A stretch of DNA of 64,000 nt from Patescibacteria group bacterium (GCA_041662565.1 JBAZSE010000001.1:257084-321083), one strand, 5' to 3'. Shown: positions 10,574-30,161, numbered from the stretch's first letter. The notes: a model not told the origin generated them from the letters alone. Program-made: numbers and translations.

Positions 10574-10640
10574 ATAAATCATTTCACATAGTATTACTTA
10601 TTTGCGAATTAAATAAAACAATTTATTTAAATATTTTTTT

Positions 10641-10832
10641 ATGAAAAAACAATTTTATACCTTTGTTATTTTAATTATTTTGTTTGTTGTTAGTACTTTC
10701 TATTGGTTTAATATTAGGCCGAGTGATATAAGAAAAACTTGTATAAATTACTCCATGGCTGATGCTGCAAATCAAGAAATTTTTTGGAATAATTATAAAT
10801 TTTGTCTTGCCAGTAAAGGTTTAAAAGAATAA
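10641..10832 (+). CDS. small membrane protein (1 TM)
   Basis: 63-aa ORF with one hydrophobic helix, in an AT-rich island. Confidence 0.3.
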   Translation: MKKQFYTFVILIILFVVSTFYWFNIRPSDIRKTCINYSMADAANQEIFWNNYKFCLASKGLKE

Positions 10833-10845
10833 TTTTATAAAGACA

Positions 10846-11481: not shown

Positions 11482-11673
11482 TTGATAATCAAATTGACTC
11501 GCTCAAGCGATATTGTTATAGTACTGGCAAAGTTAAAATCAATTGTTTTTTTGTGCTGGAATGTGGCAAGGCAAAAATTCTAATTGGGAATTTATAAGTT
11601 TTTATCATTTTGACTTTTCCAATGTTTTTGCTATAATGCCAGTGCTTAAAAAGTATAATATTAATTTACAATT

Positions 11674-12021
11674 ATGCTAAGATTAGCTAATTTATTTCGA
11701 CCAAAATTGCAAGATGAAGCCATGGATGCTTATTTTCATAGATTGCCCAATGGAATACAGGTAGAATGGTTTCGCGATGGGAATTTTATTATCGGTAATA
11801 TTTTTGCAGAGGGGAATAAGTATATGACTCAAGCCGTATCAGCCAATGAATTTATTGAGATGGTTAATGATACTTTATTGGCTGTTTATGATATTCCCAA
11901 AAACTATCAAAACGAACTATTAAAGTATAAAAAATTTAAGCCGTCAATTCAGGAATTTAATGATCTTAATAACGCCGCTATTAAAAAATCTTCGTTAAAA
12001 TTTGAAAAGCAATTAGCGTAA
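11674..12021 (+). CDS. HicB-like antitoxin N-domain protein (UPF0150-like)
   Basis: Pattern VEWFRDGNFIIGNIFAEGNKYMTQAVSANEFIEMVNDTLLAV fits the HicB N-domain consensus (vpdlpg..tqG.t.eEa..n..eai). It is adjacent to a HicA-like ORF. Confidence 0.4.
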   Translation: MLRLANLFRPKLQDEAMDAYFHRLPNGIQVEWFRDGNFIIGNIFAEGNKYMTQAVSANEFIEMVNDTLLAVYDIPKNYQNELLKYKKFKPSIQEFNDLNNAAIKKSSLKFEKQLA

Positions 12022-12027
12022 GAGATT

Positions 12028-12276
12028 ATGACAGAATACGCGGATATTAAATTAAAGAGACTTCGTAATTTTATTAAACATTTAAGCCATAGAACTAACA
12101 TAAAATTAGAAAGAGGCGGTGGCCATGTTGATAAAATTACCTATCCTCATTGGGCAAGGCCATTTCCATTACCCTCAAGGCACGGTACAGTCAATAAGCA
12201 TATTGTTAAGGATTTGTTGGAAAAGTTAATTAACGATGAAATTACCAATCAAGAGGAAATAGATAAAAAATTATAA
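12028..12276 (+). CDS. HicA-like mRNA interferase toxin
   Basis: 82 aa with G-H...YPHWARPFPLPSRHG...HIVKDLLEKL, matching the HicA/YcfA core (GSH...P.H...l....i...l). Confidence 0.5.
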   Translation: MTEYADIKLKRLRNFIKHLSHRTNIKLERGGGHVDKITYPHWARPFPLPSRHGTVNKHIVKDLLEKLINDEITNQEEIDKKL

Positions 12277-12576: not shown

Positions 12577-12759
12577 ATGGGAGTAAATTTGATGCTTTTT
12601 CCGAACATCAATCGTTGGCGAGATGAAGGATCTAGAATCCCATCATCAGCGCCAAGCAACGTTTCATCGGTCTTAAATGGCACGCAAGATAACAATCTTG
12701 CCGTGTCTCAAGACTGCGAAGCAGACCCGTGCGATTGCACTGGGGATGACGGGGATTAA
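12577..12759 (+). CDS. candidate RiPP precursor peptide (Cys/Asp-rich C-terminal core DCEADPCDCTGDDGD)
   Basis: 60-aa ORF directly upstream of the rSAM/SPASM gene and separated from it by a stem-loop. It has 3 Cys and 7 Asp in the last 16 residues. Confidence 0.4.
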   Translation: MGVNLMLFPNINRWRDEGSRIPSSAPSNVSSVLNGTQDNNLAVSQDCEADPCDCTGDDGD

Positions 12760-12829
12760 TGATTGAAACACCCGGGGTGGTAGAGGTTTTAACAAAATCT
12801 CCGCCACCCCAACATTTCAGGAGAGCAAC

Positions 12830-13858
12830 ATGACTCAACCGGTATTTTCTATCCAGTGGCATATTACTACACGTTGCCAGCAACGTTGCCGTCATTGCTA
12901 TCTTTTTACTTCTCCGGAAGCACAAAAGGAAATATCTGGAGAGAAAAGTGTCACTTTCGACAAGTTAAAACTGATCGCTGACAACTTAGTTTTTTCTTGT
13001 CAAAAGCTAGGCGCTAAACCAAAAACATCAATCACCGGAGGTGATCCAATCCTCCACCCATATTTTTGGGAGCTGCTAGCTTACCTCGAAAAGTTGGGTA
13101 TTAAAGTCAGCATTCTTGGTAATCCATTCAAAATTACCAATAAGGTCGCTGAAAAATTAACTCACCTGGGAGTTAGTAAATACCAAATGTCTTTAGATGG
13201 GCTTCCTGAAACTCATGATCGACTGAGGAAGCCGGGATCATTCGATCGGACAATTCGTGCCAGTAAGATTCTAAAGAAACATGGGATAAAAGTCGGCATC
13301 ATGACTACAGTTTCAAAGTTGAACGCCTCAGAGATACCCTCTTTGATTGAATTAGTAGCTAAAGAAGGAATAAATAGCTACTCATTCGCGCGCTATTGTC
13401 CGACTCACAACGATCTTGGTTATATGTTCAGCCCGCAAGAATACCGCAGTTTTTTAGCTTCGGTTTGGGAAACTTATACTAAGAATGTTGACAGAGGAAC
13501 TAAATTCACATTGAAAGATCATCTTTGGCTTTTATTCCTCAAGGAGGAAGGCCTATTCAGGCCAGAGCCTACTAATGGGATTATTATCAGCGGTTGCGGT
13601 CTTGGCATATCACACTTATCGGTTTTGGCTGATGGTACGGTTTATGCCTGCCGCAGATTTCATAGTCCCGTTGGCCAAGTTCCTGAGCAAAGTTTTTACG
13701 AGATTTTCACCGGAGTTCAAATGAATGAATTTCGGGATTATTCTCGCTTGGAAAAATGCAAGGATTGCGAATTGCTTTGTTACTGCCGTGGCTGTATGGC
13801 AGTCGCCTATGGCTTTACCAATCACTGGACTGCGCCAGATCCACAATGCTGGAAATAA
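12830..13858 (+). CDS. radical SAM enzyme with C-terminal SPASM domain (peptide-modifying maturase-like)
   Basis: N-terminal CQQRCRHC (CxxxCxxC), plus a C-terminal Cys cluster CRRF...CKDCELLCYCRGC typical of SPASM/twitch auxiliary Fe-S domains. Confidence 0.85.
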   Translation: MTQPVFSIQWHITTRCQQRCRHCYLFTSPEAQKEISGEKSVTFDKLKLIADNLVFSCQKLGAKPKTSITGGDPILHPYFWELLAYLEKLGIKVSILGNPFKITNKVAEKLTHLGVSKYQMSLDGLPETHDRLRKPGSFDRTIRASKILKKHGIKVGIMTTVSKLNASEIPSLIELVAKEGINSYSFARYCPTHNDLGYMFSPQEYRSFLASVWETYTKNVDRGTKFTLKDHLWLLFLKEEGLFRPEPTNGIIISGCGLGISHLSVLADGTVYACRRFHSPVGQVPEQSFYEIFTGVQMNEFRDYSRLEKCKDCELLCYCRGCMAVAYGFTNHWTAPDPQCWK

Positions 13859-13927
13859 CCGAATGGGATGGTTTACATTTTAGACCACCCCATTTTTTTT
13901 AAAGCTTATTTGTGATAAAATTGATAT

Positions 13928-14455
13928 ATGCAACAATTCATCAAAGAGGTTTTAAAATATGCCAATAAAGGTAAAATTTTAGACTTGGGAGCCGGGGTAG
14001 GAAAACAGGCCGAGAAATTTTTAGCAACCGGCGCTTCCGTTACTGCGGTTGATAAAAAAAAACCAAAAAAACAAAATCAAAAAATTATCTGGAAAAAATC
14101 CAGAATGGAAGAATTTATTTTTTCTTCGGATTTTACTGATGTTTATGATGTTATTTTCATGCAGAATATAATTCAATTTTTAGATAAAAAATGGACATTA
14201 GCAACTTTAATGCCTGTTTTACAAAGGCACTTATCTAAAAATGGAATAATAGCTATTAGAACTTTTTATAAAAATCCAATTCCTCCCTTTAATAGAGCCC
14301 CTCTCTCACTTTATAAAATCAACACTTTATTATTCTTATTCAAGGGATGGAAAGTTTTATTTGCCAGACAGTTTAAATATGACGGGCCAGGACTTGATGG
14401 AATTAAAAGGCGTTTTTATTTAAGCGATTTAATTGTAAAAAATCAGAAGAAATAA
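13928..14455 (+). CDS. class I SAM-dependent methyltransferase
   Basis: Motif I ILDLGAGVGKQA with a downstream acidic residue. 175 aa. Confidence 0.6.
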   Translation: MQQFIKEVLKYANKGKILDLGAGVGKQAEKFLATGASVTAVDKKKPKKQNQKIIWKKSRMEEFIFSSDFTDVYDVIFMQNIIQFLDKKWTLATLMPVLQRHLSKNGIIAIRTFYKNPIPPFNRAPLSLYKINTLLFLFKGWKVLFARQFKYDGPGLDGIKRRFYLSDLIVKNQKK

Positions 14456-14463
14456 AACAAAAG

Positions 14464-14488
14464 CAACGGCTAAAACCGTTGTTTTTAA
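14464..14488 (+). terminator. rho-independent terminator (aacggctaaaaccgtt plus T-run)
   Basis: Hairpin then TTTTT after the methyltransferase stop. The same hairpin family appears at 12283. Confidence 0.5.
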
Positions 14489-14489
14489 T

Positions 14490-14566
14490 TGGTCCGCACA
14501 GCAGGATTCGAACCTGCGACCGTTTGCTTAAAAGGCAACTGCTCTACCAGGCTGAGCTATGTGCGG
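14490..14566 (-). tRNA. tRNA-Lys (anticodon UUU)
   Basis: Hand-folded cloverleaf: acceptor CCGCACA/TGTGCGG, D-arm GCTC..GAGC, anticodon loop CTTTTAA, T-arm GCAGG-TTCGAAT-CCTGC, encoded CCA. Confidence 0.85.
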
Positions 14567-14760
14567 GCGTGTGGTAGACTATAATTTCATAACTTTCGCT
14601 AGAATAACACAATCTTTGCCGTTTGGCAAGCCCGTAGGCATTTTTGATAAGAAATGAATGGAATTTTTGAGAATTGGCAAAAATTATTTTTTATGGTAAG
14701 ATAGTAGTAGTAATGATGATTTCACGATCATCCATTTTTTATCATTAACCATACAAAAAT

Positions 14761-15555
14761 ATGGAAAATCAAGATCAAGCTTGTTCCGGCAATGGCTGTT
14801 GCCGATCAATGTTTTCAGCAAAGCATCTCATTGCCTTAGTGCTAATTTTAGGCGCTATTACTTTGGGTATTGTGTCTTTAGTGAGGGATAGAATTGTTAA
14901 TCCTGATCGCAATCAGGTTTCGTTTACGGCCGATGCCAAGGTTTTTGCCAAACCGGATATTGCTCAAATCCAACTGGCTGTTAAAACCGAACGCTCCAAA
15001 GATGCCGTTACAGCGGTTAAAAATAACACTGCTAAAATGAATGCGGTAACCGATAAGTTAAAAGAGCTGGGTATTGAAGATAAAGATGTTAAAACAACCA
15101 ATTATAATTTAAGCCCGGAATACGATTACACCATTAATGTGGGCCGAAGCACTTTAGCCGGCTACAGTGTTTATCAGGAAGTAACCGTTAAAATCAGAGA
15201 TTTGGATAAGGTTGGCACGATTATTGAAGCCGCAACATCAGCCGGATCCAATCAAGTTGGCGGTATTTCTTTTACCATTGATGATTTAACTGAAATTAAA
15301 AAGCAAGCCAGAGCCGAGGCCATTGCCAAAGCCAAAGAGCAAGCCAAGAGCATGGCCGAACTAACCGGCATCAAATTAGGCAAACTGGTTAATGTTTACG
15401 AAAATACCGGCAGCCCAATGCCATACTATGATAACGGCATTTACTCGGCTAAAACCATGGGTATGGGCGGCGCGGAACTATCTGTTGCTCCAACCATTCA
15501 AACCGGTGAAAATGAAGTTAGGGTCGAAATTACTTTGAGTTACGAAGTTAAATAA
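14761..15555 (+). CDS. SIMPL (DUF541) family protein with N-terminal CSGNGCC motif and TM anchor
   Basis: The central and C-terminal region matches the SIMPL/26-kDa periplasmic immunogenic protein pattern. The N-terminus is MENQDQACSGNGCC followed by one TM helix. Confidence 0.65.
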   Translation: MENQDQACSGNGCCRSMFSAKHLIALVLILGAITLGIVSLVRDRIVNPDRNQVSFTADAKVFAKPDIAQIQLAVKTERSKDAVTAVKNNTAKMNAVTDKLKELGIEDKDVKTTNYNLSPEYDYTINVGRSTLAGYSVYQEVTVKIRDLDKVGTIIEAATSAGSNQVGGISFTIDDLTEIKKQARAEAIAKAKEQAKSMAELTGIKLGKLVNVYENTGSPMPYYDNGIYSAKTMGMGGAELSVAPTIQTGENEVRVEITLSYEVK

Positions 15556-15661
15556 ATATCAAAAAGCTCCGGCATTACTTACGGTAAAAGTCGGAGCTTT
15601 TTTAATTACCAAAATTTTCAAATTCCTGTATAATAGAGGTATTATTTTTAATATTTGTTAT

Positions 15662-18037
15662 ATGAAAAACATTCTTTGGTTTAATGAACTAAATATTTCC
15701 GATATTCCCAAGGTGGGTGGAAAAAACGCTTCTTTGGGCGAAATGTATCAAAAATTAACGAAAAAAGGGATTAAAGTGCCTAATGGTTTTGCCATCAGTT
15801 CCGGCGCTTATTATACCTTTCTTAAATTAACGGGAATTGATAAGGAAATTAAAAAAATTCTCACAGGTTTGGATACCGGCAATATGAAGGATTTAGCCAA
15901 AAGAGGCGCGCTTGTTAGGGAGGTGATTTTAAATGCCGAATTTCCTAACGAACTTAAAACCGATATTGATTCTGCTTACAAAAAATTATGCACGTTTGCT
16001 AAAAGGCAAAATGTTGATGTGGCTGTCCGCTCCAGCGCTACGGCCGAGGATTTGCCCGATGCTTCTTTTGCCGGCCAACAGGAATCTTATTTAAATATCA
16101 AGGGCGAGCATTCGTTATTGGAAGCGGTTAAGCAATGCATGGCCTCGTTATTTACCGATCGAGCCATTAGCTATCGAGTGGATAAAAAATACGATCATTT
16201 TAAAATTGGCCTTTCGGTCGGGGTGCAAATTATGGTGCGATCGGATTTAGCTTGTTCGGGCGTAATGTTTTCCATTCATACGGAAACAGGTTTTAAAAAC
16301 GCCGTCATTATCAATGCCTCTTACGGTTTGGGCGAATATATTGTTAAAGGCACAGTTACGCCGGATGAATATTTGGTTTTTAAGCCAACTTTAAAGCAGG
16401 GCTTTAAATCCATTATCGGAAAAGAATTGGGCAGTAAAAAACATAAACTAATTTACGCTTCCGGCGGAACAAAACCAACTCAAGATGTGGAAGTTTCGGC
16501 AAGCGATCAAAATAAATACGCGCTTAATGATGCCGAAATTTTGCAGTTGGCCAAATGGGGTTGTTTAATTGAAGATCATTACAAAAAACCCATGGATATG
16601 GAATGGGCCAAAGATGGCCATAGCAAACAATTATTTATCGTCCAGGCCAGGCCCGAAACGGTTGAATCGCGCGTTAATCCCAATGTGATTGAAGAATATA
16701 TTTTGGAAGAAAAAGGCAAAATAATCGTGGAAGGCGCTGCTGTTGGTAAAAAAATCGGGCAGGGCAAGGTGCGGGTAATTCCGGATGTTTCGCAGCTGCA
16801 TGTTTTTAAAGAAGGGGAGATTTTGGTTGCCGAAATGACTGATCCGGATTGGGAGCCGATAATGAAAAAGGCCAAAGGCATTATTACCGATTCCGGTGGC
16901 CGAACTTGCCACGCAGCCATAGTTTCCCGCGAGCTTGGTATTCCTTGCGTGGTGGGCACAGGTAAAGCCACCGAGCTCTTGCGCACCGGCCAAGAAGTTA
17001 CTTTAAGCGGAGTGGAGGGCGAAGTTGGCCGGGTTTATAACGGGCTGTTAAAATATAAAATAAAAAAAACCAATATTAAAAATCTTAAGCGTCCTAAACG
17101 CGTTAAGGTGATGATGAATGTGGGCAATCCCGAAGCGGCATTTGCCGAAAGTTTTATTCCCAATGACGGCGTTGGCTTGGCCCGTGAAGAATTTATTATT
17201 TCCAATTTTATTAAAATTCATCCCTTGGCTTTAATTAATTACAAAAAGATCAAGGATTTGGCTGTTAAAAATCAGATTGATGAGCTAACGGCAGCTTATG
17301 ATAACAAAGTCCAATTTTACATTGATAAGCTGGCTTACGGCATTGGCAGGATTGCCGGCGCGTTTTGGCCCAAGGATGTTATTGTTCGCTTATCCGATTT
17401 TAAAACCAATGAATACGCCGGTTTAATCGGCGGTAAAATGTACGAACCTTTGGAAGATAATCCGATGATCGGCTGGCGCGGGGCTTCTAGATATTACGAT
17501 CCCAAATACATTGAAGGTTTTAAGTTGGAATGCCTGGCGTTTAAAAAAGCCCGTGAAGAAATGGGTTTAACTAATATTAAAATCATGGTGCCGTTTTGCC
17601 GAACTATTGAAGAGGGTGAAAAGGTCTTAAAAATTATGGCGCAACATGGCTTAAAGCGGGGGGTTAAAGGTTTGGAAGTTTACGTGATGTGCGAAATTCC
17701 TTCCAATGTTATTTTAGGCAAAGAATTTTGTAAAATCTTTGACGGTTTTTCGATTGGCTCCAATGATTTAACTCAGCTCACGCTGGGCGTGGATAGGGAT
17801 TCGCAGTTGGTGGCTCATGTGTATAACGAAAAAAACGAGGCCGTTAAAATATTAATCAGGCAGATTATCAAAACAGCTCATCAGTATAAGCGCAAGGTGG
17901 GTATTTGCGGACAGGCACCATCGGATTTTCCAGATTTTGCCCAATTTTTGGTTAGAGAAGGTATAGATTCCATTTCCTTAATTCCGGATACGGTAATTTC
18001 CACTACGGTAAAAATCGCCCAAGCAGAGAAGAAATAG
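15662..18037 (+). CDS. ppsA: phosphoenolpyruvate synthase (pyruvate, water dikinase)
   Basis: 791 aa with an ATP-grasp N-domain, the phosphohistidine region GGRTCHAAIVSRELGIPCVVG, and a PEP-utilising C-domain. Confidence 0.92.
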   Translation: MKNILWFNELNISDIPKVGGKNASLGEMYQKLTKKGIKVPNGFAISSGAYYTFLKLTGIDKEIKKILTGLDTGNMKDLAKRGALVREVILNAEFPNELKTDIDSAYKKLCTFAKRQNVDVAVRSSATAEDLPDASFAGQQESYLNIKGEHSLLEAVKQCMASLFTDRAISYRVDKKYDHFKIGLSVGVQIMVRSDLACSGVMFSIHTETGFKNAVIINASYGLGEYIVKGTVTPDEYLVFKPTLKQGFKSIIGKELGSKKHKLIYASGGTKPTQDVEVSASDQNKYALNDAEILQLAKWGCLIEDHYKKPMDMEWAKDGHSKQLFIVQARPETVESRVNPNVIEEYILEEKGKIIVEGAAVGKKIGQGKVRVIPDVSQLHVFKEGEILVAEMTDPDWEPIMKKAKGIITDSGGRTCHAAIVSRELGIPCVVGTGKATELLRTGQEVTLSGVEGEVGRVYNGLLKYKIKKTNIKNLKRPKRVKVMMNVGNPEAAFAESFIPNDGVGLAREEFIISNFIKIHPLALINYKKIKDLAVKNQIDELTAAYDNKVQFYIDKLAYGIGRIAGAFWPKDVIVRLSDFKTNEYAGLIGGKMYEPLEDNPMIGWRGASRYYDPKYIEGFKLECLAFKKAREEMGLTNIKIMVPFCRTIEEGEKVLKIMAQHGLKRGVKGLEVYVMCEIPSNVILGKEFCKIFDGFSIGSNDLTQLTLGVDRDSQLVAHVYNEKNEAVKILIRQIIKTAHQYKRKVGICGQAPSDFPDFAQFLVREGIDSISLIPDTVISTTVKIAQAEKK

Positions 18038-18046
18038 ATCAGGGGC

Positions 18047-18114
18047 GGTTATCAACTTGACCATTTTTGAAACTTAAGATAAGTTAATAAACAGCGTCAT
18101 GGTGACGCTGTTTT
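18047..18114 (+). repeat. copy 1 of a ~67-bp direct repeat module (TTGACC...TAAGTT promoter-like region plus 21-bp palindrome ACAGCGTCATGGTGACGCTGT plus T-run)
   Basis: Nearly identical to 18496-18562. Each copy precedes a small ORF with a conserved aatggagat RBS context. Confidence 0.6.
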
Positions 18115-18158
18115 TGTTCCTCACCGGTTCATCAACCCGGTAAACAAATGGAGATCTC

Positions 18159-18431
18159 ATGAAAATGAGAGCAGAGCGACAGCGGAAAAAGAAAGACGAA
18201 GAAGATCTTCTTTCTTTGCTACCCCCTGGTATGAAGGGGTTGGGTTCGTCGGGCACGTTGGTCCAAAAAACAGTCAAGGCCTATTTTGTGGGCATTGGCA
18301 CTCGTGACGTGCCTGATATATTCGTTATTGACAAAGAAACGGTGAGATTACCCGGAGGGGTGATTACGGGTAATCGTAATGATAAGAAGATGATTGATGG
18401 CTGTATTATGAACTCATCGCCAAGTGGTTAG
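18159..18431 (+). CDS. hypothetical small protein (GC-rich, Lys/Glu-rich N-terminus)
   Basis: 90-aa ORF downstream of repeat copy 1. GC about 47%. Confidence 0.3.
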   Translation: MKMRAERQRKKKDEEDLLSLLPPGMKGLGSSGTLVQKTVKAYFVGIGTRDVPDIFVIDKETVRLPGGVITGNRNDKKMIDGCIMNSSPSG

Positions 18432-18495
18432 CGGCTGTTACTCTCATTGATTTTTTGGCCCGTTGGAGCATCTGCTCACGGGTCTTTTTTTTGAC

Positions 18496-18562
18496 GGTTA
18501 TCAACTTGACCATTTTTAAAACTTAAGATAAGTTAATAAACAGCGTTAAGGTAACGCTGTTT
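18496..18562 (+). repeat. copy 2 of the ~67-bp direct repeat module (palindrome variant ACAGCGTTAAGGTAACGCTGT)
   Basis: The palindromic symmetry is kept despite substitutions relative to copy 1, which suggests a conserved structure or site. Confidence 0.6.
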
Positions 18563-18605
18563 ATTTGAACACATTCACACACAGGTCTAACAATGGAGAT
18601 GCATC

Positions 18606-18800
18606 ATGCATCATCAGGGAAAGGTCGAGCAGAATGGAACATTAAAAGTTAATGTTCCTGGACATGGGGACGTTGAAGTTTCCAAGGATTATTTGACCGA
18701 AGGTGGTCGTACAGTTCAGGTGCCCGAAAGACTTTTGTCAGAAGGAGGAAAGGGCTATAGAAATGTACCTTATGTGGCGCCACCGAGGCATAAGCGATAA
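18606..18800 (+). CDS. hypothetical small protein (Gly-rich)
   Basis: 64-aa ORF downstream of repeat copy 2. Confidence 0.3.
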   Translation: MHHQGKVEQNGTLKVNVPGHGDVEVSKDYLTEGGRTVQVPERLLSEGGKGYRNVPYVAPPRHKR

Positions 18801-18935
18801 ATTGCTCGCACCGCTTCTCTGATTTTATCAGCCCGTCTCTCTATTAATTCATTGCCATAAAGCTTTGATTAAGAGTTGCGCGGGCTCTTTTTTTTAAACA
18901 AAAAAGAGACAGTTAATCTCTTTTTAAAATCAATG

Positions 18936-18975
18936 GCGTGACGCTTAGCGTCACAATCGTCACGCTAAGTGTGGC
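18936..18975. promoter_or_regulatory. cluster of overlapping palindromes sharing the TGACGCT/AGCGTCA half-site (gtgacgcttagcgtcac...gtcacgctaag)
   Basis: Same half-site as in the 67-bp repeat palindromes. Confidence 0.35.
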
Positions 18976-19140
18976 GGTGTATCATGGTTTGGTACATCGA
19001 AAGTAAGGACATTATAAGGGTTTTTTAGCTTTCTATTCAGGTGGCCTTAGAGGCACTTGGGTCAGGGGAACTAATTAGTGAAATGAAAAAACATTAAGAA
19101 TAGTTCTTTGTAAAAAATAATAAATAATTATACAATAAAA

Positions 19141-19193
19141 AATGCTCTACACTAGGTTATAGTTCCTAAGAACTAACCTGTGTAGAGCATTGG
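19141..19193 (-). terminator. long hairpin terminator (about 22-bp stem) for the minus-strand T9SS-CTD gene
   Basis: aatgctctacac...gtgtagagcatt inverted repeat, followed on the minus strand by TTTTTT. Confidence 0.6.
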
Positions 19194-19199
19194 TTGTGT

Positions 19200-20621
19200 T
19201 CACTTAATCAGCGTCACCTTTTGCATGATTGTTGTAGATGACGACGATTGAAGCTGCAAGAAGTAAAATCCAGAGGGCAAATTTTGCCCGTTAATAGTGA
19301 TGTGAAAGTCCCCAGTGGCCGGACCGTTAAACAGTTTGTTCACTTCTCGTCCATAAGGATCAACGAGTAATAAACTCACTTGCTCAAAACCAGGCGGCAC
19401 TGCGTAATGAATGATTGCCGAAGAGTTGAATGGGTTAGGAAATACCTGTAATAGCGTTCCAACTGGAATCAACGGCATAACCTGGGTTGAAAGCTGATCA
19501 ATACCTGTTTTAACAAGCCACATGTTAGCCGAATATAGATCTGTTGGTCCTTTTGAACCGGCTAAGGTATAACTGCCATCAGGATTTTCTATCAAACTGC
19601 GGCACTCTTCATATTCTTCGGTACCATATGTTTTAGACCAAAGAATATTGCCTCTTGAACCAGTTCGTATTAGCCAGAAGTCTTTATTATTAGCACCAAA
19701 AGATGTCGTGTTTCCGGCTAAAACAAATCCGCCGTCAGGCATTTCAATAATGGAATTGCAGTCATTGTTGCCATTATTTTCATAAAGGCATGATAATAAA
19801 CTGTCGCCGTTTTCATTAATCAGCAACAGCCAAGCATCCCAATTATCCGGATTATGAGAATAGGCAGACCCAACTAAAGCAATTCTGCCATCAGTTGTAA
19901 GAATAGCAGATTCGCAAAAATTATGGCCGCCAATTTCGTAAGTACGGGACCAGATTGAATCGCCATCGGCGTTGATTTTGATCGCCCAGCAATCGCTTCC
20001 ATAGTTCCCGGCTAAAACGAATCCGCCGTCAGGCATTTCAATAATGGAATTACACTTGTCAGACCATAATCCGCCATACGTACGGGACCAGATTGAATCG
20101 CCATCGGCGTTGATTTTGATTATCCACCAATCTATGTCGCCAGCGCCAAAAGACATTGTACTGCCGATTAACATAAAACCGTCATCAGCAGTTTGAATAA
20201 TCGATCGGCAATACTCATGGCTTGCCCCGCCATAAAAGCGGGAATAGATGACGTCACCATCGGAATTGATTTTAGTAAATTTAAAATCTAAACCGAAGAC
20301 GTCAGGCTTCATTGCATCGCCAGCAAAGGCGAATCCGCCATGACATTGGATAAGAGAATTACAGTCTGCAATGAATCCTTCATAAGCGCGTGACCAAACA
20401 GAATCACCACGCTCATTTGTGCGAATTAGCCAAGGACATTCTCCTTGCCCAAAAGATGCAGTAACGCCTCCTAACAAGTATCCCTCGTCAGATCGCAGAG
20501 CAGTCCGACATTGTTCAGTGTGATTTCCGTATTGGTGGCTCCAAACGGTATCAGGTTGCGCCAAACAAGTACTGACAAAAATAGCCAATACAAGCGCGTA
20601 AAGTGAGATCTTTCTAAACAT
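19200..20621 (-). CDS. secreted repeat (beta-propeller-like, GDSIWSRTYGG repeats) protein with T9SS/Por-type C-terminal sorting domain
   Basis: Signal peptide, then at least 6 repeats of about 45 aa with the G-D-S-I/V-W-S-R/K-T/A-Y-G-G core. The C-terminal ~80 aa (VFPNPFNSSAIIHY...GFYFLQLQ...) matches the Por secretion tail pattern. GC about 44%. Confidence 0.6.
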   Translation of the reverse strand: MFRKISLYALVLAIFVSTCLAQPDTVWSHQYGNHTEQCRTALRSDEGYLLGGVTASFGQGECPWLIRTNERGDSVWSRAYEGFIADCNSLIQCHGGFAFAGDAMKPDVFGLDFKFTKINSDGDVIYSRFYGGASHEYCRSIIQTADDGFMLIGSTMSFGAGDIDWWIIKINADGDSIWSRTYGGLWSDKCNSIIEMPDGGFVLAGNYGSDCWAIKINADGDSIWSRTYEIGGHNFCESAILTTDGRIALVGSAYSHNPDNWDAWLLLINENGDSLLSCLYENNGNNDCNSIIEMPDGGFVLAGNTTSFGANNKDFWLIRTGSRGNILWSKTYGTEEYEECRSLIENPDGSYTLAGSKGPTDLYSANMWLVKTGIDQLSTQVMPLIPVGTLLQVFPNPFNSSAIIHYAVPPGFEQVSLLLVDPYGREVNKLFNGPATGDFHITINGQNLPSGFYFLQLQSSSSTTIMQKVTLIK

Positions 20622-20773
20622 CTCAAACCCTTCTTTCTTGAATTTTAAGGTACCTTTTAGGTAAAATTACAATAAATTAACTAAAATGTAAAGCTAAAAT
20701 ATTATATTGGTTATGTTTTAATAAGCAAAAACTGCCTTTCAAAGCAGTTGGATTCATCGATACTTTATTGTAC

Positions 20774-20863
20774 TGGCGGAGAGGCAGGGATTTGAACCCT
20801 GGAAGGCTTTTACACCTTACTTGCTTTCCAAGCAAGCGCACTAGACCACTATGCGACCTCTCC
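20774..20863 (-). tRNA. tRNA-Ser (anticodon GGA), long variable arm
   Basis: Hand-folded: acceptor GGAGAGG/CCTCTCC, anticodon loop TTGGAAA, long variable arm, T-loop TTCAAAT, encoded CCA. Confidence 0.85.
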
Positions 20864-21010
20864 ACGTGTTTCGCCCTAGCCAGCCGAGAAGGGCTGGCGA
20901 AGGCGGATAATTTAGAGTAATATACTATATTTTCCAATTTAAATCAAGCAATGACTACCCATGCAAAATATGGTATAATATGAATAATTATTAATTTAAG
21001 CTTAAAATAT

Positions 21011-22138
21011 ATGAAGAATTTGTTTAAGTTAGCAGTCTTTAGTTTAATTTTAGCTATGCCTATAATATCTTTGGCAGCGGAATTTAGGGCTGGTGATACA
21101 CCTTCAATAGGCAGAGACGAAGCTATTACCAACGATGTTTATATGGGCGGTGGTAATGTTACCAGCGCCGGGAGCATCAGCGGCGATCTTATTACCGGAG
21201 GCGGTAACATTGTTATTAGCGGTGATGTTGGTGCTGATATTATTGTTGCAGGTAATAATATAAGTATATTGTCAAATATCGGTGATGATGTGCGGGCTGT
21301 TGGTAACACCGTTATTATTACAGGTCATGTAGAGGGAGATTTGTTGGCTGGTGGCGGGCAAATAGTTGTGAGCGGAGTCGGTGTGGGTGGGGATGTGGTT
21401 ATCGGCGGGGGCAATATTCGGCTGGATGCGCCGGTATCAGGAAATCTTTTGATTGGCGGTGGAACTGTTTATATTAATTCTGCGATAGGCGGTAATGTAA
21501 AAATAGACGCGGAAAAAATCACTTTTGGGAAAAATGCCGTTATTTCCGGTAATGTAACTTACAAGTCCATTAAGGAGATGGTTAAAGAAGATGGGGTAAC
21601 AATTAAGGGTTCTGTTGATTTTAAATTAAGAGAAAAGAAAACTGTTTCTCATCAAGCGCTGTTGGGGATTTTTTCCGCTTTTATGTTATGGAAATTTTTA
21701 GCGCTGTTGGCCTGTTCATTGGTTATTGGGCTATCATTTAAGCGTTATAGTAAGGAAATTGTTGCTTTAGCTGTTAAGAAGCCGTGGCTAGAGCTTGGTA
21801 GGGGCCTGATTGTTATGATAGTTACGCCAATTATCTCCATCATGCTTTTATTTACCTTAGTGGGAATTCCATTCGGCATACTTGGTTTGTTGGCTTATGT
21901 TATTATGATGATGTTTGCTTGGATGATAGCGCCGATAATTTTGGGGAGCGTTGTTTACGGTTACTTTGCCAAAAAAGAATTTATTGTTTCTTGGAAAACC
22001 ATTCTTTTGGGAACATTAATTTTTGTGCTTTTGGGGTTGGTGCCGTTTATCGGCTGTTTTGCTCAAGCATTACTGATGTTTATTACTCTTGGTGCCATCA
22101 TTGCTCTTAAATTACACGTTATCAAAGATTGGAGATAA
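21011..22138 (+). CDS. membrane protein with secreted bactofilin-like beta-helical repeat domain and C-terminal 4-TM domain
   Basis: Signal peptide, then about 150 aa of G-x-V-x-G-D-V repeats similar to bactofilin/polymer-forming DUF583, followed by four hydrophobic helices. Confidence 0.4.
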   Translation: MKNLFKLAVFSLILAMPIISLAAEFRAGDTPSIGRDEAITNDVYMGGGNVTSAGSISGDLITGGGNIVISGDVGADIIVAGNNISILSNIGDDVRAVGNTVIITGHVEGDLLAGGGQIVVSGVGVGGDVVIGGGNIRLDAPVSGNLLIGGGTVYINSAIGGNVKIDAEKITFGKNAVISGNVTYKSIKEMVKEDGVTIKGSVDFKLREKKTVSHQALLGIFSAFMLWKFLALLACSLVIGLSFKRYSKEIVALAVKKPWLELGRGLIVMIVTPIISIMLLFTLVGIPFGILGLLAYVIMMMFAWMIAPIILGSVVYGYFAKKEFIVSWKTILLGTLIFVLLGLVPFIGCFAQALLMFITLGAIIALKLHVIKDWR

Positions 22139-22201
22139 AAAATTGTTATAAAAAGAGCCCCGACGTTTGCTACGCAAAGTCGGGGCTCTTTTAAATTTAA
22201 T

Positions 22202-22873
22202 TTAAACTTTTAAACTAAACGGATTAAAGTTAGTTTCCTTGTCGTAGTAATCTTCCTGTTCCGATTTTTTAAGGTAGCCAACAACTTTGTAAGTCAGGGG
22301 AGTTAATAAAACTTCCACACCGCATTTAAAGATGTAGTTGGAAAAAATAATAGTAATCAATAGTTCGGTGGGTAAAATTCCCCAAAAAGCAATCAGGCAA
22401 AATAAAATCGTGTCTAATCCTTCACCAATCAAGGTGGAGCCAATGGTTCTAAGCCACAACCATTTGCCGGCAGTGGCAATTTTTAATTTTGCCAAAGTAA
22501 AAGAGTTGGCAAATTCGCCGGCAAAGTAAGCAATTAAACTGGCTAAAACCAATCTAGGAGTTAAGCCCAAAATGGCTTGATAAGCGCTTTGGTTTTCCCA
22601 ACCCTCGGCCGCCGGTAGCCAACCCACAATCATTAACACAGCCGACATTAACAGGGCGCTAAAAAACCCGAGCCAAATAACTCTACGTGATTTTTTGTAG
22701 CCGTAAACTTCGGTTAAAATATCGCCAAAAATGTAGGCCAGCGGGAAAAGCAAAGTTCCGCCATCAAAGCTAAACAATCCAAGATTTAAAATCTTAGTAG
22801 AAGCAATGTTGGAAATTAACAACACGGCCACAAACAGTCCTAAAATAATATCAAAATGTTTATAATTTTTCAT
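22202..22873 (-). CDS. yhhQ: queuosine precursor transporter, YhhQ/DUF165 family
   Basis: Hallmark FPLAYIFGDILTEVYGY motif and 6 TM segments. ATG start at 22873; the ORF track extends to an upstream GTG inside the leader. Confidence 0.8.
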   Translation of the reverse strand: MKNYKHFDIILGLFVAVLLISNIASTKILNLGLFSFDGGTLLFPLAYIFGDILTEVYGYKKSRRVIWLGFFSALLMSAVLMIVGWLPAAEGWENQSAYQAILGLTPRLVLASLIAYFAGEFANSFTLAKLKIATAGKWLWLRTIGSTLIGEGLDTILFCLIAFWGILPTELLITIIFSNYIFKCGVEVLLTPLTYKVVGYLKKSEQEDYYDKETNFNPFSLKV

Positions 22874-22892
22874 AATGACAATGTTATTGTTC

Positions 22893-23016
22893 GGGCAAGA
22901 CACAAAAATTTTTTTGTCTGCGGAACTCGTGCCCTCGCTGCTGCCCGGCTTTGCCGGTCATAGCTCGGTCACTCAAACAAGTCCTCGTCTGCAAAAATTC
23001 TTATGTCTTGCCCTCA
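22893..23016 (-). promoter_or_regulatory. GC-rich structured 5-prime leader of yhhQ (candidate riboswitch, possibly preQ1-responsive)
   Basis: ~124-nt leader closed by a long-range helix, GGGCAAGACA...UGUCUUGCCC, enclosing GC-rich hairpins (ccggcaaagccgg). It sits next to a queuosine-precursor transporter gene. Confidence 0.3.
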
Positions 23017-23110
23017 TTAAATAATAATAAGTATTCATTAATATACAACATAGGGTTAATTTTCGCAATATTTGCTAAAACCCTTGATTTTGCTATGATA
23101 CCAAAGCCAT

Positions 23111-24871
23111 ATGCCCAGTGATGTAGAAGATATAAAAAATCGTTTGGATTTGGGGGATTTAATTGGCGAATACGTTAAGTTAACTCCGGCCGGTGTTAAC
23201 TTTAAGGCCAATTGCCCTTTCCATAACGAAAAAACCGCCTCTTTTATTGTTAGCCCAGATAAGCAAATCTGGCATTGTTTTGGTTGCGGCAAAGGCGGGG
23301 ATCATTTTAGTTTTATTCAACAATTAGAGGGCTTGGAATTTCCCGAGGCCTTGCGAGTTTTGGCGGCACGGGCCGGTGTTAAGTTGGAATATCGTAATCC
23401 CGAACAGCATAACCACAAAACCCGTTTGTTGGATTTAAATAAAGCCATTATGGAGCATTGGCAGAATTTACTGGCCAAAGATCCTTCTGCCCAGTTAGCC
23501 AGAGATTATTTACAGCAAAGGCAATTAAAAGAAGAAACCATCAAGCAATTTTGTTTGGGTTATGGTTTGGAGGCCTGGGATAGCGCTGTTAAGTTTTTGC
23601 AAAGCAAGGGTTTTACTTTAAAAGAAATGGCTGATGCCGGTATTACCGTAGTAGGAGAAAAAGGCCGGCCCTATGATAGGTTCAGGGGGCGCTTGATTTT
23701 TCCCATCAGAGACGTGCACGGCAATGTAGTTGGTTTTACCGCCCGCAAACTTAAAGAAGAAGATCACGGCGGCAAATACGTAAATTCTCCGCAAACCGAA
23801 ATTTACAACAAAAGCCAGATTTTATATAACTTGGATTTAGCCAAAACCGAAATCAAGCGATTAAATTACGCCATTTTGGTAGAAGGCAATATGGATGCCA
23901 TTGCTTGTTATCAAGCAGGCACCAAAAACGCCGTGGCAATTTCGGGCACGGCATTAACGCCCGAACAGATAAAATTATTAAAACGCTACACCCAAAATGT
24001 GATGATTGCTTTTGATGCCGACCCGGCCGGAGTTCAAGCCAATTTACGGGGCATTGATTTGGCTTGGCAAGCAGGTCTTAATGTTAAAGTTATCAGCATG
24101 ATTTCCGGCAAAGATCCCGATGAATTGATTAGGGAAAATCCTGATAAATGGCGCGAATCGGTAAAAGGCGCTTACAATTTTATGGATTACGCTTTTGTGG
24201 CGATTTTGCAGGGTTTGGATCTTGCCCGAGTGGACCATAAAAAAACAGCGGCCAAAAAAATCCTACCTTTAATTAGAAATTTGGGCGATGAAGTGGAAAA
24301 ATCCCATTATTTAAGGAAACTAGCCGATATTTTAGGGGTTAATGAAGAATCTTTGGCTAATACCTTATCAGCCATTAAAGTGGCGCCAAGTTTACAGCCA
24401 ATTAAAGAAAAAACCCGCCAAAGCGAAGAAATCGACCATAATCGCACTTTAGCCGAGCATTTACTGGCATTATTGGTTAAATTTCCCCATCAGCTTAAAG
24501 AAGTTGCTCAACATCTGGAGCCGGCCATGCTCAATTATCAGCCGGCCGCGCGCCTTTACACGGAACTGATAATACATTATAATAAGAATCATCATTTGCC
24601 CGAAACGGAGTTATTAAAAGATTTTGACTCCGAACAGCCGGGTTATCTGGATCAGCTGTTTTTATTGGTTGGTGAAGAATTTATCAATCCAACGCCTGAT
24701 TTGCTTAATCATGAAATTTTAAGCGCTGTTAAACGCTTAAAAGATAATCATATTCGCGCTCGACTTCAACACATTGCTTGGGCGTTAAAACAAGCCGAAC
24801 AAGCCGGCCAAACAGATGAGGTCAGCAGATTAATCCAAGAATCAACCAATTTGTCTCGCCAGCTAAAATAA
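23111..24871 (+). CDS. dnaG: DNA primase DnaG
   Basis: Zinc-ribbon CPFHNEKTASF...CFGCGKGGD, Toprim EGNMDA...D-x-D, and a C-terminal helicase-interaction region. Confidence 0.92.
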   Translation: MPSDVEDIKNRLDLGDLIGEYVKLTPAGVNFKANCPFHNEKTASFIVSPDKQIWHCFGCGKGGDHFSFIQQLEGLEFPEALRVLAARAGVKLEYRNPEQHNHKTRLLDLNKAIMEHWQNLLAKDPSAQLARDYLQQRQLKEETIKQFCLGYGLEAWDSAVKFLQSKGFTLKEMADAGITVVGEKGRPYDRFRGRLIFPIRDVHGNVVGFTARKLKEEDHGGKYVNSPQTEIYNKSQILYNLDLAKTEIKRLNYAILVEGNMDAIACYQAGTKNAVAISGTALTPEQIKLLKRYTQNVMIAFDADPAGVQANLRGIDLAWQAGLNVKVISMISGKDPDELIRENPDKWRESVKGAYNFMDYAFVAILQGLDLARVDHKKTAAKKILPLIRNLGDEVEKSHYLRKLADILGVNEESLANTLSAIKVAPSLQPIKEKTRQSEEIDHNRTLAEHLLALLVKFPHQLKEVAQHLEPAMLNYQPAARLYTELIIHYNKNHHLPETELLKDFDSEQPGYLDQLFLLVGEEFINPTPDLLNHEILSAVKRLKDNHIRARLQHIAWALKQAEQAGQTDEVSRLIQESTNLSRQLK

Positions 24872-24903
24872 ATATTTTTTTAAATTATTTTCTTTAATTT
24901 TCC

Positions 24904-26289
24904 ATGGCTACTAAAAAAAATACTTCTTCCTCAAAGCTTAAAGAGCAAAAGGGGAAAAGCAAAAAAAACGCCGGTAAAAAAGTTTTTAAAAAAAAGGCCA
25001 AAACAATAAAGGCCAAAGCCAAGCCGGCTAAAAAGGCGGATAAAAAAAAGCCCGCGATTTTTAAATCCAAAAAAGCCAAACAACGCATCATTAAAGCCAA
25101 GCCATTTAAAAAACATTACCGCCTGCCGGAAGTTAAGCATAAAAATGTTCAACCCCAGCAGGATGAAACCACAGTTAAGGGCTTGGATTTGGCAGTTGTT
25201 AGGGCCTTGGAAGAAAAAGGCCGTTTTAGAAGTTTTATTACCGAAGAAGAAGTGCTGTATGTTTTTACCGAAGCTGAAGAATATCTGGATCAGTTAGAAG
25301 AATTTTTAGATCGTTTAAACGAAGCCGGCATTCAAATGGTTTCGCGCGAAGGCGGATTTTTGGGTGAAACGGAAAATATTCCCGTAACTCCGGCCAGCAA
25401 AAAAAAGACCCACGAACTTTCGGCTAAGGAATTGTTGGAACTGCAAAAATTGGATCTAACCGATATTTCTTCCGATTCCATTCAGATGTACCTGCGGGAA
25501 ATCGGCAAGGTTCATTTGCTAACTACCGAAGAAGAAGTGCAATTGGCCAAGCGCAAAGAAAAAGGGGATATGGAAGCCAAGAAAAGGTTGGTTGAAGCCA
25601 ACTTGCGTTTGGTGGTATCCATTGCCAAAAAGTTTACTGGCCGCAGTTTAAGTTTGTTGGATTTAATCCAAGAGGGCAATATTGGCTTATTTAGGGCAGT
25701 AGAAAAATTTGATTATCGCAAAGGTTATAAGTTTTCCACTTACGCTACTTGGTGGATCAGGCAAGCTATTACTCGCGCGCTGGCCGATCAATCTAGAACA
25801 ATCCGCATTCCGGTGCACATGGTAGAAACCATTAATCGTTTCCAACAGGCCGAAAGAAGGTTGATTCAGGATTTAGGCAGAGAGCCAATGCCCGAAGAAA
25901 TTGCCGCGGAAATGGGCGAGGAGCTTGACAAAGTCCGCCAAATCATTAAAATATCACAAGAAACCGTTTCGCTGGAAACATCGGTAGGCGAAGATGACGA
26001 AGATTCCACTTTAGGTGATTTTATAGAGGATGAAAAAACCATTTCACCGGATAAGGTTGCGGCTTTGCAATTGTTAAAAGATCATGTTCAGCAGATTATT
26101 TCTGACCTTACCCCCAGAGAGCAAAAGATTTTGGAAATGCGTTTTGGTCTTTTAGACGGTGTAGCCCATACTTTGGAAGAAGTGGGTCAGGAATTTGGCG
26201 TAACCCGCGAGCGCATTAGGCAAATTGAAGCCAAAGCCCTGGAAAGAATTCAGCATAACACAGGCATGCGTAAATTAAGAGATTATTAA
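24904..26289 (+). CDS. rpoD: RNA polymerase sigma factor RpoD with Lys/Ala-rich N-terminal extension
   Basis: Regions 1.2 through 4.2 are recognisable ([10 protein letters not shown], the [16 protein letters not shown] block, and [22 protein letters not shown]). The first ~60 aa are a KKAK-repeat tail. Confidence 0.92.
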
Positions 26290-26462
26290 TTTTATAAAAT
26301 TGTTCATTAAATTGTTGATTTAAAAATCGCCGAGCTCGAAAGGGCGAGGCGAAGAGGAAGAAGTTGATTGAAGCCGGAGTGGCTTCGCGATAAGCGGAGG
26401 CACGGAGGCTGAAAGCAACTTTTGACGATCGGGAGTAGCTCAGTGGTAGAGCAGTTGGCTGT

Positions 26463-27010
26463 GAACACGGTCTTTGCTATAATCAGTTTATGGCTAAAGA
26501 CAAAAGAACCTATCGTGATCGCGCTGAATATCTTAAAAAAGCTGTTGATAAAAGGCGTAAGAGTTTACGTTTAATGGCTGTAAGATATAAAGGCGGCAAG
26601 TGTCAACTTTGCGGATACAAAAAGTGCATTCAAGCATTAGATTTTCATCATTTAGATCCTAAAAAGAAAGATTTTGGAATTTCAGAATCCGGAACAACAA
26701 GATCTTGGATGAAAATTAAAACGGAATTGGATAAATGTCTAATGATTTGTGCTAATTGTCATCGTGAAGTTCATCATGGTAAAACGCAGCTTTTTGCCGT
26801 AAGGCAGATTGAAAAATGAGGTGAACTCGGGGAAGCCTGAAATGGTAATCCCGAGCCAAGCCCTGATCTTGCTTAAGCAAGCGTCGGGGAAGGTGTAGAG
26901 ACTATCCTTAACAGGAGTACCTTGTAATGATTACAAGGGAAGCGCCTCATCTCCTAAAAGTTTTAGGAGAATGATATAGTCCACCCTTTAGAGAAATCTA
27001 GAGACAAGTG
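26463..27010 (+). mobile_element. group I self-splicing intron (~548 nt) carrying an HNH homing-endonuclease ORF
   Basis: The 5-prime exon ends in U and the intron ends in G, as group I splicing requires. R-like (GUAGAGACUAUCC) and S-like (GAUAUAGUCC) elements sit at 26895-26906 and 26973-26982. There is also a CGGGGAAGG P-like element. Confidence 0.55.
26490..26819 (+). CDS. HNH homing endonuclease (intron-encoded)
   Basis: CQLCG...LDFHHLDPKKKD...CANCHREVHHG: the classic HNH His-Asn-His/zinc-finger arrangement. Confidence 0.8.
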   Translation: MAKDKRTYRDRAEYLKKAVDKRRKSLRLMAVRYKGGKCQLCGYKKCIQALDFHHLDPKKKDFGISESGTTRSWMKIKTELDKCLMICANCHREVHHGKTQLFAVRQIEK

Positions 27011-27045
27011 TAACCAATTGGTCGTGGGTTCGAATCCCTCCTCCC

Positions 27046-27115
27046 GAGCCATTAAAAAACCACCAAAGAAATTTGATGGTTTTTTATTATTCCAAGATTA
27101 ACGATATTGAGGGAT
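27046..27115 (+). repeat. 70-bp direct repeat R, copy A (contains a terminator-like hairpin aaccaccaaa/tttgatggtt plus T-run)
   Basis: About 94% identical to 30092-30161. It begins at the GAGCCA 3-prime end of the tRNA. Confidence 0.6.
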
Positions 27116-27272
27116 TCGAACGGGCAGAAGCGAGGCAAGCCCTCAGGGCGCAGATGAGCGTCGACAAAAGCGACCAATCGGAAGCTTTTGGCGCTGCCCA
27201 GGACAACGAGACCCGCAAAGCGGGGCGAGGCGGAAATCTTTACCCGCCTTTGGCTGGCCTCCTCCCGAGCCA
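27111..27272 (+). ncRNA. GC-rich structured element ending in a second copy of the tRNA 3-prime end (GGCCTCCTCCCGAGCCA). Candidate small RNA or att-site remnant. It contains a tmRNA-like GGAUUCGAACGGG motif.
   Basis: About 60% GC in a 37% GC genome. It starts with GAGGGATTCGAACGGG, which resembles the conserved tmRNA 5-prime motif, and ends with a 17-nt match to the tRNA acceptor/CCA end followed by a terminator hairpin. Confidence 0.2.
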
Positions 27273-27360
27273 GTAAAAGTGCATCAACGATTGTTGGTGC
27301 TTTTTTAATAAATAAGCTTTTAAAAACCACAAAAATATGATAACATGTATTTAATAAAAA

Positions 27361-30091: not shown

Positions 30092-30161
30092 GAGCCATTA
30101 AAAAACCACCAAAGAAATTTGATGGTTTTTTATTATTCCGAGATTAATGATATTAAGGGAT
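30092..30161 (+). repeat. 70-bp direct repeat R, copy B, followed (30186-30205) by a third 20-nt tRNA-3-prime-end mimic GAATCCCTCCTCCCGAGCCA
   Basis: Sequence identity with 27046-27115. The 20-mer is identical to tRNA positions 27032-27051. Confidence 0.6.

Follow-up and report, generated by a model that had tools for sequence, protein, structure and literature searches.

How does a gene with the export tag of a type IX secretion system (T9SS) come to lie in the chromosome of a bacterium whose lineage should be unable to use such a tag? The question is raised by a stretch of 64,000 nucleotides from a Patescibacteria group bacterium (GCA_041662565.1, JBAZSE010000001.1:257084-321083; the whole stretch is here called the window), which encodes a predicted secreted beta-propeller protein ending in a T9SS type A sorting domain. 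T9SS has been described only in the superphylum of Fibrobacterota, Chlorobiota and Bacteroidota (FCB), where the type A C-terminal domain (CTD) is cut off by PorU and the protein is then linked to anionic lipopolysaccharide (A-LPS) (PMC11205867, PMC12398890). In Patescibacteria, an outer membrane has been proposed to be absent (PMC12102498), and a literature search found no paper describing T9SS tags in this group. The account that we consider probable is an old horizontal capture, by which an FCB-type T9SS cargo gene entered a variable spot in a Komeilibacteria-like genome, with the protein now exported by the Sec pathway and its tail retained uncleaved.

The propeller protein and its sorting domain

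The propeller gene and its parts have the following coordinates in the window:

19200-20621, minus strand: propeller gene, an open reading frame (ORF) of 473 amino acids
20559-20621, minus strand: predicted Sec signal peptide (amino acids 1-21), with cleavage predicted between CLA and QP
19491-20555, minus strand: seven-bladed beta-propeller (amino acids 23-377)
19203-19454, minus strand: T9SS type A C-terminal sorting domain (amino acids 390-473), a seven-stranded beta-sandwich ending in ...QKVTLIK
19141-19191, minus strand: intrinsic terminator of the propeller gene, a hairpin (folding free energy, dG, -30.1 kcal/mol; z -6.0) followed by U6

The JGI and ENA gene calls give the full 473 amino acids, whereas the NCBI annotation, in which the product is already named a T9SS sorting-domain protein, starts at Met104 and yields 370 amino acids, with the signal peptide and two blades lost. 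The longer call is preferred because it is supported by the full-length alignment with the protein family, and its ATG is preceded at 6 nt by a Shine-Dalgarno-like AGAAGGG. The N-terminus reads MFRKISLYALVLAIFVSTCLA up to the predicted cleavage site and QPDTVW after it, which matches the family start ...AQPDSLWS in the alignment with homologues of about 480 amino acids. The signal peptide was assigned from reading of the sequence, from this alignment and from a helix at residues 2-19 in an AlphaFold2 (AF2) model; it has a basic n-region, a hydrophobic core in that helix and a cleavage junction aligned with the N-termini of the family.

The middle of the protein is built up by seven repeats of 46-52 amino acids on the pattern (G)DSxWSxxYGG...C.S.I...DGG..LAG, of which the fourth is shortened to 46. 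The AF2 model, built on 41 sequences, has a mean predicted local distance difference test score (pLDDT) of 89.5 and 28 strands within residues 25-372, arranged as seven four-stranded blades that close into a propeller, followed by a low-confidence linker at residues 381-386 between propeller and tail. The propeller fold is also matched in Foldseek and profile comparisons by the enzyme CylK, discussed below. The direct repeats of the gene itself have periods of 138-156 nt, and two near-identical segments, D1 and D2, relate blades 3-4 to blades 4-5 (91% over 56 nt) and blade 4 to blade 6 (94% over 51 nt); these segments point to intragenic duplication or conversion. The SBBP/delta-60 repeat model TIGR02608 scores 41.7 bits, which is under its curated cut-off of 76.5, a weak match was obtained to NF047494 (Leptospira LipL53-type), and a Pfam scan of the protein returned no propeller-repeat family. 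SBBP-type repeats also occur in another Patescibacteria metagenome-assembled genome (MAG), where locus L078 encodes, from position 15670 on the plus strand, a giant surface protein of at least 2,042 amino acids with two SBBP-type repeat blocks, repeated Ig-like modules and no T9SS tail.

The tail (amino acids 393-469 of 473) exceeds the curated cut-offs of both relevant models, with 31.2 against 27 bits for PF18962 and 23.7 against 23 bits for TIGR04183, the latter a narrow pass by 0.7 bit. It is modelled as seven strands (390-395, 401-408, 415-420, 426-433, 437-444, 451-459 and 464-471; pLDDT about 80-94), and the family profile matches the T9SS substrate CTD chains 8glj_D and 8glk_D of the translocon structures 8GLJ and 8GLK. 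The protein thus combines what characterizes a type A cargo: a terminal match to TIGR04183 and PF18962, a seven-stranded Ig-like sandwich and a predicted Sec signal.

A preliminary description of this locus had proposed a minus-strand protein of 473 amino acids with a signal peptide, at least six repeats and a T9SS C-terminal pattern, and all of this agrees with the present results, including the TIGR04183 match on which the description had staked the last point. Its strong hairpin terminator was likewise recovered, as was the position beside tRNA-Ser(GGA), the 3' end of which lies on the same strand 152 bp from the ATG.

A protein search gave 1,574 matches. The top ones have 475-495 amino acids and contain PF18962, and their alignments span 96-100% of the query. 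Among the matches listed, the named homologues other than the protein itself belong to Calditrichaeota, KSB1 and Ca. Electryonea clarkiae, and the others are unclassified entries labelled 'bacterium'; one Bathyarchaeota homologue is without the tail. The sole Patescibacteria entry among the 120 best of the 1,574 matches is the query itself. Two homologues seen in their genomic context lie in ordinary genomes outside the Candidate Phyla Radiation (CPR), one of them (L162) with another Por_Secre_tail gene at a distance of 3.5 kb; the GC content of two homologue-bearing contigs is 47-52%. In an alignment of 41 members the window protein diverges most, with its nearest neighbour at 44% identity (range 33-44%, mean 39%) compared with a mean of 47% among the others. 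Divided by domain, identity is 41% in the propeller (family-internal mean 51%) and 35% in the tail (internal mean 38%), which indicates that the tail is not decaying faster than the rest and that propeller and tail both follow the one family.

Chromosomal context of the gene

The propeller gene is flanked as follows, with two small ORFs (orf90 and orf64) between it and the left flank:

15662-18037, plus strand: PpsA (phosphoenolpyruvate synthase; PPDK_N, PEP-utilizers and PEP-utilizers_C), the conserved left flank
20730-20749, minus strand: terminator-like hairpin just 3' of tRNA-Ser
20774-20863, minus strand: tRNA-Ser(GGA) (ARAGORN; Rfam 58.8 bits)
21011-22138, plus strand: hyp375, a lineage-specific membrane protein with DUF8173 (PF26514), on the far side of the tRNA
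22202-24871: Vut_1 transporter (minus strand) and DnaG (plus strand), the conserved right flank

The flanking proteins are identical to 'Patescibacteria group bacterium' entries in two NCBI MAGs (locus tags WCV73_ and WC669_) that share the gene order of the window, and the NCBI accessions run consecutively through PpsA, orf90, (orf64), the T9SS protein and hyp375. The window DnaG is 66-68% identical to that of Candidatus Komeilibacteria MAGs, and the window holds a series of core chromosome genes (L15, SecY, Adk, Map, RuvX, L21, RecR, DnaB, PpsA, DnaG, RpoD, GreA, BipA and TopA). Judged by these relationships the host is a Komeilibacteria-like Patescibacterium, and the longest contig, an ENA record of 809 kb, points to a genome size of about 0.8 Mb. 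Among the approximately 58 proteins of the window, none belongs to a T9SS or to outer-membrane biogenesis.

The preliminary description had also considered a chimeric contig, due to assembly or binning. In such an event an FCB-type fragment would have been misjoined into Patescibacteria DNA, for example via shared k-mers within the tRNA, and there are features that would fit this. A Logan contig corresponding to 20836-25755 ends at 20836, inside tRNA-Ser, and a stretch of 36 nt in this tRNA (20829-20864) recurs with 100% identity in L038, another Patescibacterium, so that the assembly graph branches and a break is expected at this point. Overlapping read sets may also underlie both NCBI MAGs and the ENA contig. 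However, the artefact needs two wrong joins, and no repeat is present at the left one. A second Logan contig (L165, run SRR6484324; seen in two runs) corresponds to window 17686-19755 and passes from the interior of PpsA through both small-gene cassettes and on into the propeller gene, of which it includes the last 184 codons, stopping where the exact internal repeats of the gene (19755-20132) start; since it crosses the left junction, this junction is independently supported. The 809-kb ENA contig (ERZ27249449, k141_1565377), assembled with MEGAHIT, is 100% identical to window 8159-28431 with the same gene order and agrees with the MAG contig base for base, and the right junction is supported by the MEGAHIT and MAG contigs and by synteny. 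Both flanks are moreover syntenic Patescibacteria core in an arrangement known from relatives, and the gene has host-like codon usage and GC content at third codon positions (GC3). A double mis-join appears very unlikely on these comparisons, and we give an assembly or binning artefact hardly any weight.

The site itself belongs to a frame that is common to many Patescibacteria: tRNA-Lys ... SIMPL-PpsA-(x)-tRNA-Ser(GGA)-(y)-Vut-DnaG-RpoD-tRNA-Asn. PpsA is 83% identical to its counterpart in L002, with SIMPL upstream in both. Because tRNA-Ser(GGA) is conserved in position between PpsA and DnaG (in 12 relatives checked, and again in L083), it is a resident landmark and was not imported with the islet. 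The intervals x (PpsA to tRNA) and y (tRNA to Vut), on the other hand, are different in every relative examined. L002 has an ORF of 92 amino acids (orf92) and a Vut paralogue 3' of the tRNA, and a lipoprotein of 166 amino acids in the place of hyp375. In L083 the interval from PpsA over tRNA-Ser to Vut (12740-19300) contains a GIY-YIG protein, a restriction-enzyme-like protein, a LexA-fused DNA methyltransferase, a 421-amino-acid protein of unknown kind, a hydrolase and a membrane protein, while several relatives have less than 1.5 kb from PpsA to DnaG. From these gene orders the PpsA-tRNA-Ser(GGA)-DnaG interval is a variable hot spot in the host's group.

In 160 related loci (2.1 Mb), homologues were found neither for the propeller protein or its tail nor for orf90 and orf64. 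The closest relative in a metagenome scan with PpsA has 81% identity, and its contig stops 359 bp past PpsA. The islet resembles a genomic island in its position at a tRNA 3' end and in its absence there from relatives, which are distant (DnaG at most 68% identical). No recombinase domain such as that of an integrase was found in the islet proteins orf90, orf64 and the propeller protein. Attachment (att) sites derived from the tRNA were considered for the islet borders and rejected, since the repeat search of tRNA-Ser and its flanks was empty, with no copy longer than 12 nt either at 17500-21500 or in the whole window.

In two other Patescibacteria, 36-37 nt from the 5' part of tRNA-Ser(GGA) are duplicated at 300-400 bp from the full gene (L038, 9530-9565; L034, 2866-2902). 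These duplicates may be the scar of an element that targets tRNA-Ser(GGA), which hints at such elements elsewhere. Many Patescibacteria-syntenic loci with DnaG-RpoD and tRNA-Ser are titled 'uncultured Gammaproteobacteria bacterium' (binchicken/SRP TPA assemblies) and one bears the name Planctomycetota; the labels of these records are probably wrong.

Origin of the gene and fate of its tail

Foreign composition (44% GC) and a codon usage unlike that of the host were part of the preliminary description, and neither was borne out. The GC content of the propeller gene is 43.2% against a window mean of 39.2% (z 0.97, 58 genes), and GC3 is host-like at 0.395 (z 0.32). The second codon position has a value of 0.441 (z 1.9), and since the raised GC comes from this position it reflects a protein rich in Gly, Asp, Ser and Trp and not a foreign mutational bias. 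Codon-usage distance is 0.169 compared with a mean of 0.167 for all genes (z 0.04); among genes of at least 400 codons it has z 1.7 and rank 3 of 19. Tetranucleotide distance, which is confounded by the internal repeats, is mildly raised, with z 2.1 for the islet and z 2.4 for the gene, which falls in the top 2% of windows of its size, and regions near 10.5, 31-32 and 38 kb of the window equal the gene in this deviation.

A horizontal origin is nevertheless supported by the combination of a Patescibacteria host, homologues of FCB type, and absence from the syntenic site of relatives as well as from the 2.1 Mb of related loci. The transfer proposed in the preliminary description is supported in part. 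It would not be recent as was assumed there, because the best identity to anything known is 44% and GC3 is host-like, and a Bacteroidota-like donor is too narrow a designation because the named relatives represent the wider FCB superphylum.

The protein could instead be a native, vertically inherited surface protein of Patescibacteria, in which case the 'T9SS' domain would be a generic Ig-like module caught by the profile models. In favour of this explanation, the composition is host-like, the margin of TIGR04183 is small, and SBBP-type propellers do exist in giant Patescibacteria surface proteins. On the other hand, a native gene is difficult to reconcile with the lack of any homologue at the syntenic site or in the 2.1 Mb of related loci, and with the protein being its own only Patescibacteria entry among the 120 best matches. 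The protein agrees with the FCB-type family in its whole architecture, with the AQPD junction and the tail motifs PNPFN...GxY...K-x-x-L-x-K included, and the repeats of L078 are of another subtype and tail-less. We therefore regard vertical inheritance as unlikely.

For an old capture from an FCB-type source, a plausible route of entry is that foreign DNA was taken up and then inserted at the hot spot by illegitimate recombination. The protein would then be exported by Sec with its own signal peptide, SecY being encoded in the same window, and in a cell without an outer membrane Sec export alone would place the protein outside the cell. No T9SS would be needed or available, and the CTD would not be cut by a PorU-type sortase. 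The tail would then persist, uncleaved, as an Ig-like beta-sandwich attached to the propeller, and the propeller might serve as a ligand-binding module. The architecture, the host, the conserved frame, the absence from relatives and the contiguity in independent assemblies are observed; the age of the transfer, the route of export and the fate of the tail are inferred.

Two other fates of the tag were considered. If the host had a T9SS, the protein would be an ordinary cargo with canonical secretion and anchoring, and the tag is indeed intact and passes both models. The approximately 58 window proteins include no T9SS or outer-membrane biogenesis gene, however, the host phylum has been proposed to lack an outer membrane (PMC12102498), and T9SS is described only from FCB bacteria (PMC11205867, PMC12398890). 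A genome of about 0.8 Mb would also leave little room for approximately 15 T9SS genes together with the beta-barrel assembly machinery (BAM) and lipopolysaccharide (LPS) pathways, and an ordinary T9SS cargo is in our view scarcely credible.

A tag with a new function is improbable. The CTD might dock onto the T9SS or the surface of an FCB host cell, or anchor the protein to the bacterium's own envelope. In its favour, degradation of the CTD does not exceed that of the propeller, an epibiotic life is widely ascribed to Patescibacteria (PMC12102498), and the family points to an FCB source. Against this, the gene is carried by a single lineage, and the available copies are identical, which precludes selection analysis. 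In its fuller form, in which a CPR epibiont took a surface cargo gene of the FCB type, possibly from its own host cell, and kept the tag for docking onto T9SS or PorV-type surface components of the host or for anchoring the propeller in an envelope that has no outer membrane, we put the chance slightly lower still. If it were true, the gene would record the host of the Komeilibacteria lineage and would be the first T9SS signal working outside a T9SS-bearing cell.

Several observations weigh against an old capture with a passively retained tail. The survey for T9SS and outer-membrane genes covers 64 kb in a genome of about 0.8 Mb. The donor cannot be assigned to a particular lineage, and most of the close homologues are labelled only 'bacterium'. 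Integrase, tRNA-derived repeat and clear compositional signal are all absent, so the case for transfer is one of distribution and synteny. Even the closest relatives with synteny are remote (DnaG 66-68%), which leaves the date of the gain poorly constrained. The CTD retains all its motifs, and the ratio of its identity to the family-internal value (0.35/0.38) compared with that of the propeller (0.41/0.51) is unexpected for a useless appendage. Finally, propeller repeats of SBBP type are native in Patescibacteria surface proteins such as that of L078.

If the capture is accepted, the locus would be a clean, assembly-verified case in which a reduced CPR genome has captured a gene from another phylum into its core chromosome. 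It would indicate that the Komeilibacteria lineage has received DNA from FCB bacteria, which may also be its partners. It would also mean that a T9SS tag can persist intact where the lineage should be unable to use it, which calls for caution when secretion systems are inferred from cargo tags.

Neighbouring elements and known systems

The islet had been given the span 18040-20870, which holds for the gene and the tRNA; the 1.16 kb at 18038-19199 is not part of the propeller gene and consists largely of two tandem small-ORF cassettes and a spacer:

18046-18113, plus strand: 68-nt repeat, copy 1 (D4), with palindrome AAACAGCGTCA-TGG-TGACGCTGTTT and then a T-run; hairpin dG -14.8, z -4.6
18159-18431, plus strand: orf90, an orphan of 90 amino acids, with AATGGAGAT ribosome-binding site
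18457-18492, plus strand: intrinsic terminator of cassette 1, GGCCCGU...ACGGGUC and then U8; dG -16.9, z -4.1
18495-18562, plus strand: 68-nt repeat, copy 2, with palindrome AAACAGCGTTA-AGG-TAACGCTGTTT; hairpin dG -15.4, z -6.1
18606-18800, plus strand: orf64, an orphan of 64 amino acids, with the same AATGGAGAT ribosome-binding site
18933-18980, strand not assigned: strong hairpin with GACGCT/AGCGTC cores in a 300-bp spacer; dG -25.3, z -5.2 on the plus strand

The 68-nt copies are 94% identical, and each consists of a -35-like box TTGACC, 17 nt, TAAGTT and a perfect palindrome with 11-bp arms, whose stem is preserved by a compensatory C>T / G>A change between the copies. TTGACC-17 nt-TAAGTT is promoter-like and, read by eye, a candidate promoter. 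No further copy of the repeat was found in the window, in 162 loci or in viral contigs, and Rfam gave nothing above chance. The two ORFs are unrelated to each other and gave no Pfam, NCBIfam or PHROG family; the only real match of orf90 among 1.84 billion representatives is itself, and orf64 matches only itself among 5.8 billion proteins. orf64 is trailed by a T-run where the hairpin is not significant. No match to 18038-19199 was found in phage or plasmid collections, and the cassettes could have arrived either with the propeller gene or separately.

The hairpin at 18933-18980 was considered as a displaced tRNA terminator and rejected, as its motif follows none of the 41 tRNA-Ser(GGA) genes of the fetched loci. 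It resembles only a double hairpin 3' of tRNA-Ser(TGA) in L071, and the motif was found only in the window and in L071.

Further elements were seen elsewhere in the window. An apparent tRNA gene at 26430-27050, not called by ARAGORN, is interrupted by a group I intron (RF00028, 26723-27003, 71.6 bits), and the intron bears an HNH endonuclease ORF (26490-26819). Its 5' exon is TCGGGAGTAGCTCAGTGGTAGAGCAGTTGGCTGTGAA, its 3' exon ends in ...GGTTCGAATCCCTCCTCCCGAGCCA, and the anticodon as read is probably GTG. Beside it, a segment of about 32% GC with an MFS transporter, a 284-amino-acid ORF and a STAS protein is enclosed by a 70-nt direct repeat (27046-27115 and 30092-30161, 95.7% identical) and by two partial copies of the 3' end of the split tRNA (CCTCCTCCCGAGCCA; approximately 27262-27276 and 30191-30205). 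The 70-nt repeats and the tRNA-end copies look like att-type repeats of an element integrated beside the intron-split tRNA. A radical SAM/SPASM maturase of the 'ACGX system' lies at 12830-13858 (TIGR04340, 407 against 400 bits), preceded at 10223-12276 by several small family-less ORFs that could include its precursor peptides.

Compared with tRNA-linked genomic islands, the islet is likewise situated 3' of a tRNA and the content of the site varies among relatives, with a restriction-modification-like module in L083. The islet differs in being only 2.7 kb and in having no integrase, no tRNA-derived repeat and no clear compositional signature.

The closest solved structure to the propeller is that of CylK, a Friedel-Crafts alkylating enzyme (PDB 7RON/7FH6; Foldseek E 5e-21, TM-score 0.65; profile E 4e-35). 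Identity is approximately 20%, and the additional N-terminal Ca-binding domain of CylK, which forms the active site together with the propeller, is absent from the window protein. The likeness is thus one of predicted fold only, from which a catalytic role cannot be inferred. SBBP/delta-60 propellers (TIGR02608; NF047494) are similar to the window protein in repeat type and repeat length, with TIGR02608 below its threshold; the SBBP repeats of L078 are a different subtype from the window propeller and are tail-less.

The nearest known relatives are the members of an uncharacterised FCB family of about 480 amino acids annotated as 'T9SS type A sorting domain-containing protein' (for example P0013; P0018 from Calditrichaeota; P0031 from Ca. 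Electryonea clarkiae). The window protein has the same organization over its full length: a signal peptide with ...AQPD at its end, seven blades that measure about 52 amino acids, a linker and a tail of about 80 amino acids with PNPFN, GxY and K-x-x-L-x-K. It differs from the FCB family in its Patescibacteria host, in the 44% identity to its nearest neighbour, in the fourth blade of 46 amino acids and in the lack, within the 64-kb window, of T9SS machinery, which would not be expected in this host. The gene is an additional member of a known family, found in an unexpected host.

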